From a virus (lineage: Duplodnaviria > Caudoviricetes), in IMG/VR virus record IMGVR_UViG_3300014000_000001, positions 96,001 to 160,000 of that record: a DNA stretch of 64,000 bases; one strand, given 5' to 3'. Below are positions 10,367 through 53,857 of this stretch, in pieces. Numbering within the stretch: position 1 is the stretch's first letter; each line of letters starts with the position of its first letter. Made by a program: the position numbers and the translations under genes. The notes beneath the pieces are model-generated. The model searched no databases, was not told where the DNA came from, and saw only the letters and a program-made list of their open reading frames with translations.

Positions 10367-12334
10367 ATGGGTATGACTCAAATCGGCGGTGGTTCAAATA
10401 ACAACGACCGCAAAAATGATCGCGATAACAACAACTACGGTAATGACCGTGGTCGTGAGCGTTCTCAAGAAGATCGCGATCGTGCTGATCTTCGCGGCGC
10501 AAGTCAGAGCTTGCGCCAAACAGCAGCTAACCCATTCGGTACGGCTGTTTCAACTTCGCGCTCTCTAGGAGCACTCAACAACTACACTTCAAACTACGTT
10601 GCTGCAAAAACCCGTGGTAAATCAATCGATATGAAAACCTTCGTGGTTGAAGAAGGGGTTGCAGTTCCATCGGTAGTGATTGCAGCGATTGCAAGCAAAG
10701 ACAATCAAAAGTTTGTTATTTCGCACGCAATCATGTTGGTGAACAACGCCCAACCACCTGCTCCTTTATTGGATCAAAACATCCAAGGCATCATGTACCG
10801 TGACAACACCACATGGGCAGATGCTTACGATGATAAATACCAAGCTGCAATCATCGAAGTGGTTGAGCGTGATTTAGCGGAAAAGGTGGAATTCATTTCA
10901 GCAGGTGCGACTGCTGTAGATTATACCTTTATTCCAACTGAAAAGTTGTTGAATGAAAACAACTTCCAATCATTACAGTTGGACAACTTGATCTTAAACG
11001 TAATGAGTGGTATTGAAGCAGTTCGTGCAATCGAATCTGACGATACATCTCGTGACATTAAACCATCTAACTCAAACCTAGATGCACAAATCGTTGCTGA
11101 TGTATCATTACAACCATCAACTTCAACTCAGCCAAACGGTGATCCATTGGCAGAAGACTTCTTGATTAAGTTGTCAGAAGTACCGAATGATCGTCGCGAT
11201 CGTAAGCGTAACGAACCACGTTCATTAAACCAAACAGGTGAAAGCAACAACCGAGCTTATGGTGCGGTATCGGGCCGTATTGATTTTAAATATGTAGAAC
11301 CAGTTCAAGTAGCTCGTGGATGGCGTCCACAACCAGGTGATTCAGCTTGCTTTATCCCTGAGTTCATTATCGCTGGTTTCGATGTATTGGATATGCAACC
11401 AAGCTTAACACTGATGTTGCAATTGATTGCATCCGTTGGTATCTTGGATTCTCGTAATCCTCCGTTTTATCTTGATGCATTCTTACCTGCTAACTTAACC
11501 AATAACAGTTCTCGTAACTTAGGTGCGTTGCAGGCGGAAATGCAAGATCCTGAAAATGGTCAACGTTTGGAACGTCTGGAGTTAAAACCATCAACAGACA
11601 TGATCACTTTCCAAAAGTTCGTGACTGCCGCGATTCAGGAAAAAGTATCTATTGCAATCGAAATCCCAACTCAAGGTCCATTGGTTGGTTTGTTAAACAC
11701 CTTCGATCAAGCAGTAGATTACAATGGTCGTGAAGGTACTGAAGCCGCTTACTTCAATGGTTTAATTGTTGAAGCTGCTGATGTATTGACTGAAGGTGCA
11801 TTCAGTGACATGTGGACTCCTGGTACACCAGTAATGTTACGTAAACGTGCAATCATTCCAACTGGTTACTGGATTGATGGTCAACAAAACAAACGTGATT
11901 CACGTGAGTTTGGTTACCTTTACTATGCGAATGTGGATAACCCACAAGAAGCTTATGAGCTTTCAGTACAGTACGATAAGTCATTCGACATTGATGATCA
12001 ATTGATTGCAGCCGCTGAACGTCGTCGTTTAATCGAAGATGTACAAGGTAGCAATTTCGTACAAACTGATAACGTAAGCCGCGTGTATTTCAATCCAGAA
12101 TTCTTCGCATGTTTGCTTGATGCGATGAACAGCTCAGGCATGGCGCCAGCAATTGGTAACGCAGCTTATGCTGGTCGTGGTCAATCTCGTCGTCGTGTGG
12201 ATGACAGCAACTACCTTGACAGTGGTCGTCTGGAAAACTCTTACCAACGTTACAACGGTAATAGCCGTGATGATCGTGGTTACAACTATAACTCACGTGG
12301 TTACGGTGCTTCACGTAACTGGCGTATTCGTTAA
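10367..12334 (+). CDS. chmA: chimallin, major phage nuclear shell protein (phiKZ gp54-like)
   Basis: 655 aa, directly upstream of nvRNAP beta-prime; chimallin-type segments (IPTGYW.D...KRDSREFGYL, RVYFNPEF..CL..AM..SG); disordered N- and C-tails; highly expressed codon bias; own promoter and terminator. Confidence 0.85.
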   Translation: MGMTQIGGGSNNNDRKNDRDNNNYGNDRGRERSQEDRDRADLRGASQSLRQTAANPFGTAVSTSRSLGALNNYTSNYVAAKTRGKSIDMKTFVVEEGVAVPSVVIAAIASKDNQKFVISHAIMLVNNAQPPAPLLDQNIQGIMYRDNTTWADAYDDKYQAAIIEVVERDLAEKVEFISAGATAVDYTFIPTEKLLNENNFQSLQLDNLILNVMSGIEAVRAIESDDTSRDIKPSNSNLDAQIVADVSLQPSTSTQPNGDPLAEDFLIKLSEVPNDRRDRKRNEPRSLNQTGESNNRAYGAVSGRIDFKYVEPVQVARGWRPQPGDSACFIPEFIIAGFDVLDMQPSLTLMLQLIASVGILDSRNPPFYLDAFLPANLTNNSSRNLGALQAEMQDPENGQRLERLELKPSTDMITFQKFVTAAIQEKVSIAIEIPTQGPLVGLLNTFDQAVDYNGREGTEAAYFNGLIVEAADVLTEGAFSDMWTPGTPVMLRKRAIIPTGYWIDGQQNKRDSREFGYLYYANVDNPQEAYELSVQYDKSFDIDDQLIAAAERRRLIEDVQGSNFVQTDNVSRVYFNPEFFACLLDAMNSSGMAPAIGNAAYAGRGQSRRRVDDSNYLDSGRLENSYQRYNGNSRDDRGYNYNSRGYGASRNWRIR

Positions 12335-12411: not shown

Positions 12412-13687
12412 ATGTTTCAACGACATATCGATCCAGACTATCCTAATTTCACCTATGACCCAGCAGTTGTGGTGGCTTTAGATAACTTGGATGATTACTT
12501 TAAAGAGGACTCATCGGAACGCGAAGTGTTTATCGCAAACGACTTTCAGGTGGATACGGAAGACAAACGTGAACATCTTGTAGATATGTTAACCAAAACA
12601 TATAGTCGTGAATTTCTTGATGAACCAATCAATGGTGCAAATTCCTTGTTTGAGAAAGTTGCTCCGTCAATGTGGATACGTCCAGTGGGTAATGGTAAAT
12701 TTGTTCAACCTAAGTTTCTATCCATGCTCACTAAAGCACTCACTCGTGATCGAGTGAATATGGTGCAATATGCGATGGACCCAAGTTATAAACTACCCAT
12801 TACTAAAACTCCATCTGGATTACTTAAAACATTCTTAGATGCTGGGTTCCCACGTGGAATGAAAGCATTCCATGATCATTTCGATGAAATCATGGATATC
12901 CTAATCATGAATCAATATCGTAAGCGTGAAGCTCGTCGTAATGCAATAGGTGAAGGGCGTAGAACCTCTGCTCGTAACACGATGGATTACATTGCGATGT
13001 GTATTGAGAAATACCGAGATTCAATCTTTTGTGAACATTTACCTGTGCCGTCTAATCAGGTATTTATCATGGAAAAGCGTGGAAAGAATAAAGTCTCTGA
13101 AGTACCACTTATGCAGTACGCGTTTGATGCGGTACATACGGTGACTTCTATTTCATCACGTATCCGTGGTGTGTCTCCACGTGAAGCAGATCGACTTGAT
13201 TATAAAGTCAATGATCTGATGAGTGAGTTCTACGAGAAATACTCTCAAAATTATCTTACTTCTAAACCTGGAGTGTTCCGTAAAAACAGTTATGGTACTT
13301 CATCGTCGTTTAATGCACGAGCAGTAATTGTATCTCGTCAAGGGATTCAAAACTACGATGAGATCATCATCCCTTATTCATTAGGATTTAAAATATTCGA
13401 ACACCATATTGCGAAAATCTATATTGATGATAAGCAGTTTAGCCCAATTGATATTTTTGAAATGCGTGCTGAATATGCAAAACAGTTTAATAAAGGTATT
13501 CATAATGTGATGAACACCCTAGTCAGTGATTTCTGGGGTGGACGTGGATGGCCGAATAACTTCTTACGCCATCCATATTTATCAAAATTATCCTCTCAGT
13601 TCTTCTACATTCCAGAAGTAGGAACTGACCCTTTAGATACCACGATACAATTATCCCCAATGGTATTAAAAGGTCCCAACGCAGACT
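12412..13687 (+). CDS. nvRNAP beta-prime N-terminal subunit (phiKZ gp55-like), exon 1
   Basis: SKPGVFRKNSYG, NARAVIVS, LRHPYL, LKGPNAD; the exon ends GAC-T in the middle of NADFDGD. Confidence 0.9.
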
Positions 13688-14079
13688 CAACCATTTCGTT
13701 CAAATGTCGGGGTCCTTATCATGGTAACATGGTTCGAAAAACTTCGTTAATTGCTGGAACGTACCCTAAAGCCGCTTAGCTAGTATTAGCGTCGAAAGAC
13801 AGAAACAATAAAGCGGATGGTCTAAGCTTAAATGAAAGCTTATCTGTTTAGATAGGTGCTAAGGATCGTGTTTAATGGGCAATCAGCAGCCACGTTTGCA
13901 TAGGCTTCAAAAGAGTAATGGAAACAGGTTCGACGGTCGTGAGGGTTGCGCCTCTTAGCCGATTCATGGATGAACGGTGAAAATGAAGCGTCCTAGGATA
14001 AGTCCCACAAGGATAATGTTAGGATGGTGGTATGACCTATAGATTCTCGAAAGAGATGAACAAAAGGAACATTTAGTTT

Positions 14080-14106
14080 TAAAGATTACATAAAGTGTGG
14101 TTCAGT
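14080..14106 (+). repeat. left arm of a perfect 27-bp long-range inverted repeat
   Basis: TAAAGATTACATAAAGTGTGGTTCAGT is the exact reverse complement of 16028-16054. Confidence 0.95.
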
Positions 14107-14122
14107 AATGTGGAGAAAAAAG

Positions 14123-14881
14123 ATGTTAACCATTCTCGAACATATGGACTACGAACACCCAAACCCTGCAGTTATTAGCCATACTCAGGGTCGTTATGTC
14201 TTAGACAAAGACACTAAAATTGTCTATGATAACTATCTGAAAAAAGAAATTAATCCTGATCCGGATAGTGGGTTATATCCGATTAACGTCCTTGAACAAT
14301 ATAACATGACATACTGGGAATTATACATGTTGTCGTTCAAGGCAAATCATATCCCCACTCACGATTTCTTAAAAGCTCTAGGAAATGGCGCTATATTTGC
14401 TTATGTAGCACACCCCACTATCGATGCGGACGAGTTATCGATAGATCAGAATATACCTAGTCGGGATTTATCCTGGTTCATCGATGTGAAATGTTCAAAT
14501 ATAGCTGGAGCCCGGTATATTCCGACGTTTACTCGTTATGTGATGGATAACGATTTTAATATTTATCAATTAGGTGATGGGTCTTTTAAAAAGATTAATG
14601 AACCAATCCCTTGGGAAGCTGAAAATGTGGAGGAACAGCTTAATGATATAATTGTATTTCTTCAGAGAGATGATAATGTTTGGGAAGAAGTTTATTGGAT
14701 TGACCTTGTTGGGATAATGTTTCTAGAACCCAAAGATGATCCAATATTTGTAGATCATCTATTTACATCAAGACAGTATATATTTAATCAAATACCTCTG
14801 AAATTAGAAGATGTCGAAAGCGGTGATTGGTTATCACAAAATATCGATATGATTTTAGATGAAAGAGACGATGAGGATTAA
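14123..14881 (+). CDS. intron ORF1: degenerate, apparently nuclease-dead paralog of the adjacent HNH endonuclease
   Basis: GGAG RBS before ATG 14123 (track start 14108); YMLSFKANHIPTHDFLKAL ~ WMLTHKPLNIPAWDFIRAW; RYIPTFTRYV ~ YYIPGYTNYV; FVDHL lacks the GN..N..NL residues. Confidence 0.75.
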   Translation: MLTILEHMDYEHPNPAVISHTQGRYVLDKDTKIVYDNYLKKEINPDPDSGLYPINVLEQYNMTYWELYMLSFKANHIPTHDFLKALGNGAIFAYVAHPTIDADELSIDQNIPSRDLSWFIDVKCSNIAGARYIPTFTRYVMDNDFNIYQLGDGSFKKINEPIPWEAENVEEQLNDIIVFLQRDDNVWEEVYWIDLVGIMFLEPKDDPIFVDHLFTSRQYIFNQIPLKLEDVESGDWLSQNIDMILDERDDED

Positions 14882-14883
14882 AT

Positions 14884-16017
14884 ATGTCTAGCAAAAACAC
14901 TAACCGACCAATTCATCGCTGGCACCACAAAAACAAAGCGATATCCTATACTTTAAACCGTTTTGAATATGATCGATTGTTAGGTGTTGTAACAGATGTC
15001 GCCAATGGAGATATTATTCAGTTAATTGATGGGTATTTTCATTTAAATGATTTTATCTTTAATAAATTGACTGAAGCCGAAGCCTGGATGTTAACTCATA
15101 AACCCTTAAACATACCTGCTTGGGATTTTATCAGGGCTTGGAAGAATAACGAAATTAAGATCATAGGTAATTCAAGAAACCCTTCTAAAGATACTACGTT
15201 CTGGAAGTTTAAAATAGAATCTAGCTATTATCCTGGTTTCTATTACATTCCTGGTTACACGAACTACGTTGTTAACGAGAGTGGTCGAGTTATATCATTA
15301 TTTAAAGGGATTGAATTACGATTTCATTCTAACGGTGATGGTTATCTAACAGCGAATATGGTTTCGGATGACTCATTGAACGGCGTAGTTCCTATCCACC
15401 CGTTAGTTGCTTTTACTTTTAAGGATTGGAGTTTAGAGGATGTTATCAATAATGAAATAGATCATATTGATGGTAATACTGAAAATACTCATGAAAGTAA
15501 TTTAGAATTCGTATCTCAAGCAGAAAATATTAAGAGGATAGCTAGAAATAACTACTACGGTAAGAGAACTCACCATTGCGATATCTATTATCGGGATCTT
15601 AAAACAGGAGAAAAAGGTATTGTTAAAACCCAACGAGAACTAGCTAACCGAATTAGTGATTTAGGTGCGAGTACGATACAGAACCATCTAAGTAAATCCA
15701 AACCCAACGCGACCCTAAAGTCAAGATATGTAATCGCATATGTGAAAGATGAATCAGATATACAATACCTAGATGGTTTAGATGCTAAGTATTTTGATCT
15801 GCGTTCTGGTTCCCAGGCTAGAGCGACGCTGATAAAGAATATAAGCACTGGTGAAATCAAGCGTTTCGATAAAATGAGAGATGCTTTTAATTACATCAGT
15901 AGTATTATTAATATTACATTTAAACCATTTAGTGATAGGTTGGCGAAAGGTATTCAAAAAGATTTTGATGGTTATATCTTTAAATACGAAGATATAACAG
16001 ACGATTGGATTTTATAA
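14884..16017 (+). CDS. intron ORF2: NUMOD4-HNH homing endonuclease with C-terminal NUMOD1-like repeats
   Basis: IPGYTNYVVNESGRV (NUMOD4-like); IHPLVA..F...EIDHIDGNTENTHESNLEFVSQAEN (HNH); two (D/N)xxTGE repeats. Confidence 0.9.
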   Translation: MSSKNTNRPIHRWHHKNKAISYTLNRFEYDRLLGVVTDVANGDIIQLIDGYFHLNDFIFNKLTEAEAWMLTHKPLNIPAWDFIRAWKNNEIKIIGNSRNPSKDTTFWKFKIESSYYPGFYYIPGYTNYVVNESGRVISLFKGIELRFHSNGDGYLTANMVSDDSLNGVVPIHPLVAFTFKDWSLEDVINNEIDHIDGNTENTHESNLEFVSQAENIKRIARNNYYGKRTHHCDIYYRDLKTGEKGIVKTQRELANRISDLGASTIQNHLSKSKPNATLKSRYVIAYVKDESDIQYLDGLDAKYFDLRSGSQARATLIKNISTGEIKRFDKMRDAFNYISSIINITFKPFSDRLAKGIQKDFDGYIFKYEDITDDWIL

Positions 16018-16027
16018 CTATAAACCA

Positions 16028-16054
16028 ACTGAACCACACTTTATGTAATCTTTA
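16028..16054 (+). repeat. right arm of the 27-bp long-range inverted repeat
   Basis: ACTGAACCACACTTTATGTAATCTTTA. Confidence 0.95.
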
Positions 16055-16118
16055 GGCTAAAAAGATTTAAACTGTTCTTATGATTAGATACAAACTAATC
16101 ACTTAGGATACAAACCGG

Positions 16119-16303
16119 TCGACGGAGATGAGATGGTCTTGTCTCTTCATTTAGATAAATACACAGCAGATCTGTGGAGTTCAACTCGTCCTTCCGAGGG
16201 CGCATTGGATCAAAACAAAGCATTATCGTATTCAGGAGATTTAGATCTCTCTAAACCGATGATCCTTCAATTCTATCGATACCTAAGTCTCGATAAGAAG
16301 TAA
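16119..16303 (+). CDS. nvRNAP beta-prime subunit, exon 2 (spliced product 486 aa)
   Basis: TC-GAC-GGA-GAT-GAG-ATG... reads (F)DGDEMVLSLHLDKYTADLWSSTRPSEG...YLSLDKK*; not in the ORF track. Confidence 0.92.
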
Positions 16304-52951: not shown

Positions 52952-53857
52952 ATGAAACTCACTGCACTTATGGCGTCCTTGATGCCTACGTTCACCAAAG
53001 GCACTTTAGAAGATGAATTCGAAGAAGTGCAAAAGATCGTAAACCAGATCAATATTCCGTTTTTAGAAGCTGGTGTAAAGCAACTTGGTAAATATAAGTT
53101 CAAAACTGAATTTGTAGATACCATGGAAACCCAGTTGGTTGATTCAGCGAAGATGAAGAAGTTCCCTAACTTCTTAGGTTCGTTCTTAGAAATCAATAAA
53201 CGGATGCGTGATCAATTCCCTGTAATTCAACGTTTGATTGATGAGTATTTTGAAGAAGACATCAGTGTACATGCGCTGAACTTACAACGTGTTAACCTTT
53301 TGCAATACATTCCAATCATGATGTTTATTGCACGTTACATCCGTACCTTCACCAATTATGCTTTAGGTTTAGAGATCAACATTGCATCTGAATCACCAGA
53401 AGCAACCTTTGAACTTATTCCAGCAGAGCGTGATTGGTTAAAAGCGAACCGTAGTACATTCTTAGATTCAGTGAATGTAGTTATGCATCGTGGCGATAAG
53501 CTTGAAAAAATCTTTGAGCAACTCCCTGATATGGGTATCGATCCAAGTAATGCAAAGATCGTTGAACAAACCCAAGGTTTAAAAGCTGATCCAATGGGTT
53601 TAGGTTTTATTCCGCTTTCAGTCAACCCATTCTTCTGGGCAGGTAAGTTCTTAGTCAATTACCAAACTGAACGTTATCACTTAGCTAAAGATGAACTCGA
53701 TATGCTCGAGCGTAAACTTTACAACTTAAAGATCATCAATGATGGGCGTAATGATGCGAAGCTTCAAAAAGAGATTAAATATCTCGAAGAGAATCGTGTT
53801 AAGCCTCTTAAAGAAAAGATCATGAATTGGGAAGAGGAATATGTCCATAACTCTTAA
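52952..53857 (+). CDS. internal head (inner body) protein (phiKZ gp90 position)
   Basis: 301 aa; ASLMPTFTK, DPMGLGFIP...NPF, C-terminal coiled coil. Confidence 0.7.
   Translation: MKLTALMASLMPTFTKGTLEDEFEEVQKIVNQINIPFLEAGVKQLGKYKFKTEFVDTMETQLVDSAKMKKFPNFLGSFLEINKRMRDQFPVIQRLIDEYFEEDISVHALNLQRVNLLQYIPIMMFIARYIRTFTNYALGLEINIASESPEATFELIPAERDWLKANRSTFLDSVNVVMHRGDKLEKIFEQLPDMGIDPSNAKIVEQTQGLKADPMGLGFIPLSVNPFFWAGKFLVNYQTERYHLAKDELDMLERKLYNLKIINDGRNDAKLQKEIKYLEENRVKPLKEKIMNWEEEYVHNS

Follow-up and report, generated by a model that had tools for sequence, protein, structure and literature searches.

In a nucleus-forming jumbo phage (chimallivirus), the source of the 64,000-nt stretch of DNA analysed here (the window), a group I intron predicted to be self-splicing carries two adjacent genes in place of one. 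ORF2 is, by its sequence, a complete I-HmuI-type HNH homing endonuclease and a predicted cutter, and ORF1 is a catalytically dead, acidic paralog of that lineage which is retained by selection. The best explanation, held tentatively, is that ORF1 serves as a protein-level partner or regulator of the coupled ORF2. Mobile group I introns are one-gene parasites consisting of one ribozyme and one endonuclease, and inactivated endonuclease genes usually decay. That a dead acidic copy is kept beside an active enzyme argues for a second function of the homing module, exerted by a protein (regulation, escort or inhibition), and suggests that selfish endonucleases may have a helper or brake not described so far. 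The features of the locus are as follows.

12412-13687, plus strand: exon 1, N-terminal piece of the non-virion RNA polymerase β′ gene (phrog_2987, 4e-74)
13688-16118, plus strand: predicted group I intron, 2431 nt (after U, last base G)
13691-14059, plus strand: candidate ribozyme core (P3-P9 region; Rfam RF00028), all of it 5′ of the ORFs
14080-14106, plus strand: 5′ arm of a 27-bp long-range helix (inverted repeat I1, 100% complementary)
14112-14115, plus strand: putative Shine-Dalgarno GGAG of ORF1, 7 nt 5′ of its ATG
14123-14881, plus strand: ORF1, 252 aa, acidic non-catalytic paralog (N-domain and I-HmuI-type first β-sheet, without the HNH finger)
14873-14877, plus strand: putative Shine-Dalgarno GAGGA of ORF2, within the last codons of ORF1 and 6 nt 5′ of the ORF2 ATG
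14884-16017, plus strand: ORF2, 377 aa, I-HmuI-like HNH homing endonuclease (phrog_59, 1e-18)
16028-16054, plus strand: 3′ arm of the helix, pairing with 14080-14106
16119-16303, plus strand: exon 2 of β′, reading (T)TC GAC GGA GAT, FDGDEMVLSLHLDKY... through the stop codon

The intron and its two-gene cassette

The exon boundaries were defined by homology. Exon 1 ends in ...KGPNAD plus a T, the first base of a Phe codon, and by tblastn its homology to jumbo-phage β′ subunits reaches no further than the D of NAD, residue 425; the boundary is identical in the loci of relatives. When 13687 was joined to 16119, KGPNADFDGDEMV and an open frame were restored, and the spliced β′ piece of 486 aa showed homology to the β′ of RTH11 and Noxifer up to residues 474-481, beyond residue 425. 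The insertion site splits a catalytic motif of β′ between NAD and FDGD, and the same site is occupied in four related phages (L008, L015, L018 and L019). The splice-site letters are ...GCAGACT/CAACC... and ...AAACCGG/TCGACGG..., the exon ending in U and the intron in G. These results indicate that a group I intron splits the β′ gene at this motif; self-splicing is predicted.

When 13650-14107 was searched alone, RF00028 was matched over model positions 1-253 of 253 with 19.9 bits and E 0.0073, under the gathering score of 50, and an Rfam search of the whole intron including the 1.9-kb cassette gave no match. The conserved elements AAUUGCUGGAA and AAUCAGCAGCC are visible in the alignment. The core is approximately 94-100% identical per 100-nt bin to those of L008 and L009, the two other loci with an ORF1 allele, and 61-79% identical to those of the single-ORF relatives. 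The two-ORF cassette is looped out by the perfect 27-bp helix, and the 3′ splice site lies 2 kb from the core. Three base pairs differ on both arms in L008, and because these changes compensate each other, the pairing is kept.

The translation signals are arranged alike in the three alleles. The Shine-Dalgarno sequence of ORF1 is GGAG or GGGGAG in L008 and L009. In the window the ORF1 stop is 2 nt upstream of the ORF2 ATG, and in L009 the two frames overlap by 11 nt with GAGGA upstream. This layout for coupled translation is common to all three alleles, the coupling itself being predicted. A fusion of ORF1 and ORF2 by read-through or frameshift was rejected because ORF2 is not in the same frame relative to ORF1 in every allele (-1 in the window, +1 in L009). 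A preliminary description of this DNA had given both ORFs within 14123-16017, an intron setting, a ribosome-binding site for ORF1 and one for ORF2 inside ORF1, and all of these were recovered, the intron by the restored junction and the two sites as listed above.

Sequence collections were also searched for the locus. Megablast against phages gave no match. One metatranscriptome run contained a 238-nt contig identical to 14621-14858, possibly from DNA carry-over, and the RNA-library contigs found do not span the splice junction. Among the sequencing runs, whose patchy cover is silent on absence, there were no contigs spanning the intron and no intron-less or ORF1-less forms.

ORF1, a diverged paralog of the endonuclease lineage

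The homology of ORF1 to ORF2 was supported by both pairwise and profile searches. BLASTP aligned the two proteins over 145 aa with 28% identity (E 2e-7), spanning the N-terminal domain and the GARYIPTFTRYV / GFYYIPGYTNYV stretch. A family HMM of ORF2-type proteins matched the three ORF1 alleles with E 3e-22 to 3e-21 over profile positions 2-134, and in the most diverged allele the match extends to position 178, just short of the HNH motif. In the MAFFT alignment, ORF1 is missing the whole DH..N..N segment and the next ~175 columns, up to its last ~30 residues; the central DNA-binding helices and the helix-turn-helix of its parent are gone. Pfam HNH_3 matched none of the three ORF1 proteins. 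Since no His-Me finger is present, ORF1 is a homolog of the N-terminal part and not an HNH enzyme. Taken together, these alignments show ORF1 as a true, catalytically dead paralog of the ORF2-lineage endonuclease. The colinearity and the loss of catalytic residues had both been proposed in the preliminary description and hold. Its pairing of the two proteins at the HNH entry was borne out for WIDLVGIMF / IHPLVAFTF, which MAFFT also aligned, but not for VDH / IDH, which lie at the edge of the deletion and are not conserved in the 55% identical allele.

The retained parts of ORF1 have changed considerably. Many family-conserved residues are gone from its β-sheet region, and its tail is new or diverged sequence in which HMMER found no second domain. 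Homology of this tail to the C-terminus of ORF2 (S.Q..F...ED..W) is no more than suggestive: 2/1000, 13/1000 and 694/1000 shuffles reached the real score for the three alleles. The structural model of ORF1 is poor (pLDDT 58), and its sole suggestive match was I-HmuI, with E 0.47 over 79 columns; this match is consistent with the homology and is no evidence by itself. A candidate third paralog at 53330-53509 of the window (E 0.02) lies within an unrelated 301-aa helical protein and was set aside as a chance match.

ORF1 is narrowly distributed. Three alleles are known (100, 86 and 55% identity), all intact and each followed by the ORF2 frame; two of the loci are complete and the third was pieced together from two contigs. 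ORF1 forms one 50%-identity cluster among 1.84 billion representatives, the remaining matches being ORF2-type proteins. It had no matches in Pfam, PHROGs or NCBIfam, including defence and anti-defence families, and none was found by tblastn of 50,697 phage records, in IMG/VR or in JGI metagenome contigs.

The same intron site was compared in the single-ORF relatives L015, L018 and L019, which have a 5′ segment of 435-453 nt (435 nt here) and one HNH gene. ORF1 begins with ML.., as do the HNH genes of these relatives, and sequence comparison places it at the ancestral gene-start position. Because the same intron in related phages holds one HNH gene, ORF1 is a derived, lineage-specific addition to an otherwise single-HNH intron. 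In the tree it falls on a very long branch apart from its neighbour ORF2; an in-place duplication, with ORF1 beside ORF2, was not rejected by the AU test (p 0.135). Bounded by the helix, the cassette stands out as an island of divergence: each 100-nt bin is 53-97% identical, the flanks are mostly 99-100% identical, and dS in the cassette ranges from 0.4 to above 1 in genomes with 98-100% identity elsewhere. The pattern indicates that the cassette is exchanged as one unit.

The acidic tail noted in the preliminary description is present, and the acidity was found to extend over the whole protein. The net charge of the window's ORF1 is -29 (pI 4.3); the three alleles range from -26 to -31, all with pI 4.3 and with acidity over all segments. 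The net charge of ORF2-type proteins is -8 to +5. Such strong acidity argues against DNA or RNA binding, and the charge of every allele makes a role as DNA-specificity subunit less likely. It argues for the same reason against ORF1 being a maturase or RNA chaperone that assists folding and splicing of this unusually long intron, which we consider very improbable. A need for such help would be understandable in a 2.4 kb intron that depends on a long-range helix to bring in its remote 3′ splice site, and degenerate LAGLIDADG endonucleases act as maturases in organelles. However, the charge of ORF1 is ill suited to RNA binding, its parent's modules for binding nucleic acids are gone, the single-ORF relatives have the same core without any ORF1, and we know of no HNH-derived maturase.

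The selection on ORF1 was estimated from the three alleles, which belong to one phage species-level group, and gave dN/dS of 0.17 (95% CI 0.11-0.27), 0.36 (0.23-0.51) and 0.39 (0.27-0.57), with none of 1000 bootstraps reaching 1. The N-domain is the most constrained part (0.07-0.25) and the C-terminal half evolves fast (omega 0.4-0.6). None of the three alleles is disrupted, at dS values reaching about 1. These ratios indicate that ORF1 is under purifying selection and not decaying, in agreement with the preliminary description, which had called it intact, diverged and selected.

These values also bear on the reading that ORF1 is a leftover of intron turnover, that is, the 5′ part of an older HNH gene that was truncated upon the arrival or duplication of ORF2 and whose frame stays open only for ribosome transit. 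The homing cycle, which Goddard and Burt reportedly described as invasion, degeneration and loss, normally passes through a stage with degenerate endonuclease genes. ORF1 resembles the defective I-TevIII of T4 in being truncated and non-catalytic in a mobile intron, it holds the ancestral start position and the ribosome-binding site of ORF2, it is narrowly distributed, and its omega is more relaxed than that of ORF2 (0.036). However, if nothing but an open frame were selected, dN/dS should lie near 1, well away from the upper limits of 0.27-0.57 and the values of the N-domain, and no antisense ORF of at least 40 aa overlaps ORF1 to account for its constraint. Moreover, unlike degenerate endonuclease genes, ORF1 has stayed intact in three alleles, has been acidified directionally and consistently over the whole protein in every one of them, and shares its intron with an intact paralog. 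We therefore regard a turnover leftover as improbable.

ORF2 and its extra N-domain

ORF2 has a recognizable catalytic core between two extra domains (N-terminal 1-116 and C-terminal about 310-377). In the ORF2 model (pLDDT 82.5), residues 117-290 matched I-HmuI (1u3e) with Foldseek E 4.8e-9, and VIA aligned 161 of these 174 residues with Z 13.9 and rmsd 11.6. D193, H194, N206 and N215 are invariant in 10 members of the ORF2 family. Pfam HNH_3 matched all 11 ORF2-type proteins (best E 2.2e-8), the window's ORF2 scoring 20.2 bits, under the 24.8 cut-off. Among named sequences, ORF2 is closest to the HNH genes of the phiKZ-like phages PA7 and OMKO1 and phiKZ gp56, with 24-30% identity over residues 95/122-375. 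Nearly all residues conserved in the single-ORF enzymes are kept by ORF2, and therefore nothing indicates a need for ORF1. Since ORF2 is complete by itself, the two proteins are not a split enzyme; complementary degeneration (sub-functionalisation) of ORF1 and ORF2 was not supported, as ORF2 retains almost all family-conserved residues.

Residues 117-290 superpose on I-HmuI of Bacillus phage SPO1 over its whole length; I-BasI, I-PfoP3I and the HNH genes of phiKZ gp56/PA7 type belong with I-HmuI among the related phage nicking enzymes. I-HmuI-type enzymes are monomeric nickases, and ORF2 is like them in being encoded by an intron that interrupts an essential polymerase gene at a conserved codon of the catalytic site. 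It differs in having a second, non-catalytic paralog in its intron, none being reported for those systems, and in its extra N-domain of 116 aa, which has no known fold and sequence matches in its own small family of chimallivirus intron endonucleases only. Compared with the genes of the single-ORF relatives, the N-terminus of ORF2 is a new basic extension. The N-domain had no match among PDB sequences and no convincing one in a fold search, where the VIA rows span only residues 109-377; its Atlas structural rows had TM below 0.45, and a feature search of the ESM Atlas gave either nothing or values below 0.8. A profile search over longer proteins returned the same HNH family alone, and a scan of IMG/VR with the ORF2 family profile gave generic HNH cores (~97-290) only, with no N-domains and no new intron loci.

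Possible action of ORF1 on ORF2 or on a third party

If ORF1 is a partner or regulator of ORF2, the mechanism may be as follows. Because the ORF1 stop and the ORF2 start either overlap or have 2 nt between them, ribosomes would start at ORF1 and re-initiate on ORF2, so that ORF1 would be produced along with ORF2 and in no smaller amount. ORF1 would be unable to cut DNA and very probably unable to bind it, and would most likely act by protein contact, pairing with ORF2 via their shared parts. It would then tune ORF2, probably restraining it as an inactive-paralog partner or an antitoxin-like brake, and ORF2 would nick or cut the intron-less β′ alleles of co-infecting relatives.

The co-folding of ORF1 with ORF2, a check named in the preliminary description, gave a weak pass. 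The mark is passed by 58/80 solved complexes and 2/110 mismatched pairs. The score was 0.56 (median of three runs) against 0.02 for the best of three controls, in a class (scores of at most 0.60) which holds only 7 of the 80 solved complexes and both passing mismatches and in which a pass is wrong more often than not. At least 88% of contacts are shared between the runs and the partner pLDDT is at least 65, with no interface reported. Custom alignments were used, for which the calibration counts hold roughly, and as the two proteins are paralogs with overlapping alignments, the score may be inflated. The co-fold model thus gives a weak indication that ORF1 and ORF2 pair. The purifying selection on ORF1, its charge, the exchange of the cassette as a unit and the layout for coupled translation speak for the partner reading; against it stand the nearly complete set of conserved residues in ORF2, the monomeric state of I-HmuI-type nickases, the residues lost from the β-sheet region of ORF1, its fast-evolving C-terminal half and its place in the tree. 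By analogy only, XPF-ERCC1 and Mus81-Eme1 also set a dead paralog beside an active nuclease, with pairing via shared domains proposed for ORF1 as well. However, their fold and family are unrelated, the pairing of ORF1 stands at a weak co-fold pass, and ORF2-type enzymes occur without a partner in related phages.

Chimallivirus biology offers a context for such a module. The HNH endonuclease gp210 of PhiPA3, encoded by a group I intron of the virion RNAP β-like gene gp211/209, has to gain access to the phage nucleus and is capable of harming a relative that co-infects (Birkholz et al., Science 2024; PMC11620839). Its active-site histidine is residue 82 (PMC11620839), and it is therefore without a long N-domain. 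Intron endonucleases of nucleus-forming jumbo phages were recently shown to be weapons between co-infecting phages, nuclear entry deciding the target. Those of chimalliviruses need import into the phage nucleus, which is selective between related phages (PMC11620839, PMC12908238). In both phages, a chimallivirus group I intron with an HNH gene interrupts the catalytic aspartate codons of a multisubunit RNAP gene. The preliminary description had invoked gp210 as a precedent, and this stands for an intron HNH enzyme that acts on co-infecting relatives; it does not extend to the gene, which is the virion RNAP β-like gene there and the non-virion β′ NADFDGD site here, nor to the intron, which has a single ORF and no described accessory protein there and two ORFs here (PMC11620839).

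Given this biology, ORF1 could act on a third party instead of ORF2, with its N-domain as a decoy or adaptor for the binding target of that domain in the full enzymes, for instance the phage-nucleus import machinery or a related endonuclease of a rival phage, or it could play an unrelated part in the phage of the kind known for very acidic proteins, such as that of a DNA mimic or anti-defence factor. We consider this rather unlikely. The N-domain is both the most constrained part of ORF1 and confined to intron endonucleases of chimalliviruses, which need an import that is selective between relatives (PMC11620839, PMC12908238); acidity would suit a mimic or decoy, and the allelic diversity of the cassette in near-identical genomes fits conflict between co-infecting relatives. 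However, the N-domain has no fold or family match, the searches of Pfam, PHROGs and NCBIfam gave no defence or anti-defence match, and a joint function is the simpler explanation of why ORF1 is tightly coupled to ORF2 and strictly inherited with it.

The reading of ORF1 as a partner of ORF2 would have further consequences. If ORF1 is a brake, this would be the first case in a bacterial virus of a homing endonuclease that gave rise to its own accessory protein, and a specific modulator of an HNH nickase could help to control such enzymes. The single-gene introns of relatives, the three two-gene alleles and one allele that has a second intron 7 nt away provide a ready comparative series on the origin of accessory functions in selfish elements.

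An acidic protein that adjoins an HNH nuclease and is translationally linked to it also recalls, by analogy only, the colicin HNH DNase/immunity pairs and toxin-antitoxin systems, as do the several diverged alleles of the cassette among near-identical genomes. In contrast to the Im-type four-helix proteins, ORF1 is a paralog of the nuclease and lies upstream of it, and both inhibition and a need for self-protection are hypothetical. A more specific and unlikely version is that the cassette is an intron-borne nuclease-plus-brake (immunity-like) module for phage-phage conflict, in which ORF2 would attack the RNAP active-site codons of co-infecting relatives in shared phage nuclei and ORF1 would restrain or escort ORF2 until it is in the right compartment. 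Matched pairs would then diversify like colicin-immunity pairs, which would explain why three cassette alleles, whose dS ranges from 0.4 to above 1, are found in genomes that are 98-100% identical.

The interrupted polymerase gene and its intron

The viral record containing the window is 232,790 bp long. Features of the locus are as follows.

10367-12334: chimallin gene
12412-13779: N-terminal piece of the non-virion RNA polymerase beta′ gene
13688-16118: group I intron
14080-14106 and 16028-16054: paired arms of a perfect 27-bp helix
14123-14881: ORF1, acidic non-catalytic paralog
14884-16017: ORF2, HNH homing endonuclease

Chimallin is the nuclear-shell protein (phrog_4795, 1e-41; Pfam Chimallin was matched on orthologs), and its presence places this phage among the nucleus-forming jumbo phages. 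By sequence its kinship to named phages is only distant; its beta′ subunit is less than 30% identical to that of Xanthomonas, Erwinia and Pseudomonas chimalliviruses, and megablast of the locus against phages gave no match. The beta′ piece (phrog_2987, 4e-74) follows directly after chimallin. The D of KGPNAD, residue 425, is the precise end of its homology to other beta′ subunits; the Noxifer and RTH11 proteins continue there as NADFDGD. The rest of beta′ (...VDGDEMVLSLHLDKY...) was found in frame 2, 3′ of ORF2. Joining base 13687 (T) to 16119 restored KGPNADFDGDEMV and gave a 486-aa product, with homology to RTH11 and Noxifer extending to residues 474-481.

The intron is preceded by U and its last base is G. 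An Rfam search of the whole stretch including the ORFs gave no match; without them, 13691-14059 matched the entire RF00028 model at 19.9 bits (E 0.0073), which is under the gathering score. Three more distant relatives (L015, L018, L019), each with a single HNH gene, have the intron at this site too, with a 5′ segment homologous to that of the window (61-79% nucleotide identity, 435-453 nt), indicating that the intron is old in this clade. The 27-bp helix brackets the ORF1-ORF2 cassette. In L008, a contig with another ORF1 allele, three of its base pairs are altered on both strands, so that pairing is kept. Both the helix and the 101-nt 3′ segment of the window are missing from L018 and L015, thus the 3′ architecture of the two-gene lineage also differs. 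In these single-ORF relatives the HNH gene extends to the 3′ splice site: in L018 the final base of the intron seems to be the G of the TAG stop codon (L018:6123-6140), and in L015 the gene stops 8 nt before exon 2 (L015:6126-6145).

Several smaller features were observed. In comparisons of the window with L008 or with L009, a contig with the third ORF1 allele, identity is only 88-93% in the final ~190 nt of exon 1 (window:13501-13687), versus 95-100% per 100-nt bin in the rest of the gene; co-conversion tracts or target variation at the homing site would leave such a patch beside the insertion site. A further insertion, 461 nt long and devoid of ORFs, is present in L009 (6095-6562) and L010-L013; it interrupts the same run of codons and lies only 7 nt 5′ of the main intron. 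The order in L009 is the exon 1 end ...GGACCTAAT, the insert ending ...CATGCG, a 7-nt mini-exon GCAGACT and the main intron, and NAD is readable only after removal of the insert. Core-like motifs (AATTGCTGGGAAC, GTCGAAAGACAGAAA, GGTGCTAAGG) are common to the insert and the main intron, and the insert resembles a tandem paralogous group I intron, although Rfam gave no match to it. Moreover, the 20 nt around the ORF1 start (window:14117-14136, AAAAAGATGTTAACCATTCT) recur with 80% identity just after the 3′ helix arm (16059-16078, AAAAAGATTTAAACTGTTCT), which may be left over from an earlier gene start or be due to chance.

ORF2 and its non-catalytic paralog ORF1

ORF2 (377 aa; phrog_59, 1e-18) belongs to the I-HmuI-type intron nickases. 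In its AlphaFold model (pLDDT 82.5), residues 117-290 superpose on the entire I-HmuI (Foldseek E 4.8e-9; VIA Z 13.9, rmsd 11.6, 161 residues aligned), and D193, H194, N206 and N215 are invariant among ten family members. Residues 1-116 form a confidently modelled domain for which neither sequence nor fold comparison gave a counterpart in PDB or Pfam; by sequence, this N-domain is limited to the small intron-endonuclease family. The dN/dS of ORF2 between the window and L008 was 0.036.

ORF1 encodes 252 aa from ATG 14123, a start that is conserved in every allele, with GGAG or GGGGAG in front of it. The preliminary description had taken it for a dead but selected paralog, translationally coupled to ORF2, and both the paralogy and the selection were borne out. 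BLASTP aligned ORF1 with ORF2 over 145 aa (28% identity, E 2e-7), and the ORF2-type family profile matched the three ORF1 alleles at positions 2-134 (E 3e-22 to 3e-21), reaching position 178 in the L009 allele. The match covers the N-domain and the sheet equivalent to the I-HmuI N-terminal beta-sheet, and stops just short of the HNH motif. In the multiple alignment ORF1 lacks ~175 columns, comprising the HNH finger, the linker helices and the helix-turn-helix; Pfam HNH_3 matched 11 of 11 ORF2-type proteins and none of the three ORF1 proteins. An alignment of the final ~30 residues with the family C-terminal motif S.Q..F...YED..DW is possible and was significant for two alleles only (shuffles reached the real score in 2/1000, 13/1000 and 694/1000).

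The dN/dS of ORF1 was 0.17 (95% CI 0.11-0.27) for window versus L008, 0.36 (0.23-0.51) for window versus L009 and 0.39 for L008 versus L009, with 0 of 1000 bootstraps reaching 1. The N-domain was most constrained (0.07-0.25) and the C-terminal half least (0.4-0.6). The frame is open in every allele despite synonymous divergence up to ~1, and no antisense ORF of at least 40 aa overlaps ORF1. ORF1 is thus maintained rather than decaying. That it is a remnant whose frame stays open solely for coupling is improbable, because such selection by itself would not reduce dN/dS.

All three ORF1 alleles are strongly acidic (net charge -26 to -31, pI 4.3), the charge being spread across N-domain, sheet and tail, versus -8 to +5 for ORF2-type proteins. 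This acidity and the loss of the central nucleic-acid-binding modules make binding of a DNA target or of RNA unlikely, and a role of ORF1 as maturase is therefore very improbable indeed. Charge and module loss point instead to protein contacts or mimicry.

A 238-nt contig from a wastewater metatranscriptome run is identical to window:14621-14858, part of ORF1. It is no more than a hint of transcription of this region, since DNA carry-over could also yield it.

Alleles, exchange and origin of the cassette

Exhaustive searches recovered ORF1 as three alleles only, that of the window and the two below. All remaining matches were ORF2-type enzymes.

ORF1 alleles related to that of the window
P0002: 86% identical; 238-kb contig L008
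P0003: 55% identical; seven contigs from different samples (L009-L014)

When the window is compared with L008 or L009, flanking genes are 98-100% identical (dS 0.02-0.08) and the ribozyme core ~94-100% per 100-nt bin. Over the segment reaching from the helix's inner half to the other arm, identity falls to 81-97% versus L008 and 53-84% versus L009, with dS from 0.42 to ~1.0 in ORF1 and from 0.37 to saturated in ORF2. Such a divergent island in near-identical flanks indicates that the two ORFs are swapped jointly between near-identical phages, from a much older allele pool. ORF1 is intact in 3/3 alleles; the window and L008 also have the whole of ORF2. The L009 copy of ORF2 is broken off at the contig end; its continuation was assigned by a matching peptide overlap to P0005, in which the HNH motif is intact. 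Two nucleotides separate the ORF1 stop from the ORF2 start in the window and in L008; in L009 there is an 11-nt overlap. All three have GAGGA upstream. A wastewater contig spans this junction at ~91% identity, and a surface-metagenome contig carries the L009-type boundary.

The contigs with the 55% allele (L009-L014, several samples) all end ~100-370 nt into ORF2 (~L009:8126), where identity to the window-type allele climbs back to 84%; the remainder of ORF2 lies on a separate 1,074-nt contig (P0005). The shared break suggests that co-occurring or recombinant cassette alleles broke the assemblies.

In relatives whose chimallin is 42-64% identical, this intron contains a single HNH gene. The gene start lies 435 nt from the 5′ splice site for ORF1 and 435-453 nt from it for these single genes, and both begin alike (ML..), whereas ORF2 has a new basic N-terminal extension instead. 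ORF1 is therefore the positional heir of the 5′ half of the ancestral gene, and the two-gene state is derived. In the tree, ORF1 was on a long branch apart from its neighbour ORF2, but the AU test did not reject placement beside ORF2 (p 0.135). The second copy may have been duplicated where it stands or may have been acquired from another intron lineage.

ORF1 as a candidate partner of ORF2

The two-ORF intron with a dead paralog is real and selected, its distribution is narrow, and this descriptive account is very probably correct. The closest biological precedent is PhiPA3 gp210 (PMC11620839), which differs in that it lies in another RNAP gene, in a one-ORF intron, and lacks the N-domain. 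No two-gene intron is described in the recent chimallivirus reviews consulted (PMC12908238). XPF-ERCC1 dead-paralog partners and HNH DNase-immunity pairs resemble ORF1/ORF2 by analogy of mechanism, not by membership.

The pre-mRNA or excised intron would be translated in the cytoplasm, with ribosomes initiating at ORF1 and re-initiating at ORF2. Inside the phage nucleus, ORF2 would then nick or cut intron-less beta′ alleles at the NADFDGD codons. ORF1, neither cutting nor binding DNA, would pair with ORF2 through their common N-terminal parts and tune it, probably as a restraint. This partner step, the likeliest of the readings considered, is put forward tentatively. A complementary motif loss that would make ORF2 dependent on ORF1 was looked for in both proteins and none was found. 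The co-folding proposed in the preliminary description lent the pairing weak support: in one job, ORF1 with ORF2 scored 0.56 (median of three runs) versus 0.02 for the best of three controls, with at least 88% of contacts agreeing between runs and partner pLDDT of at least 65. Of 80 solved complexes, 58 attained this mark, as did 2 of 110 mismatched pairs; at scores of 0.60 or below it was attained by no more than 7 of the complexes and by both false passes. The chains are paralogs and were run with custom alignments, and the output came without an interface. The prediction raises the odds of ORF1-ORF2 contact a little and no more. ORF1 might, on the other hand, serve as a decoy or adaptor that acts on some other component, for instance the import machinery, which we consider rather unlikely.

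In the two-gene lineage ORF2 starts with a basic, His-rich extension (window:14884-14940, MSSKNTNRPIHRWHHKNK; L009 version, MSSKSKARPLTRLHHKNK), which is missing from the single-gene enzymes. Because it is present only alongside the acidic ORF1, it is a possible contact site or import signal.
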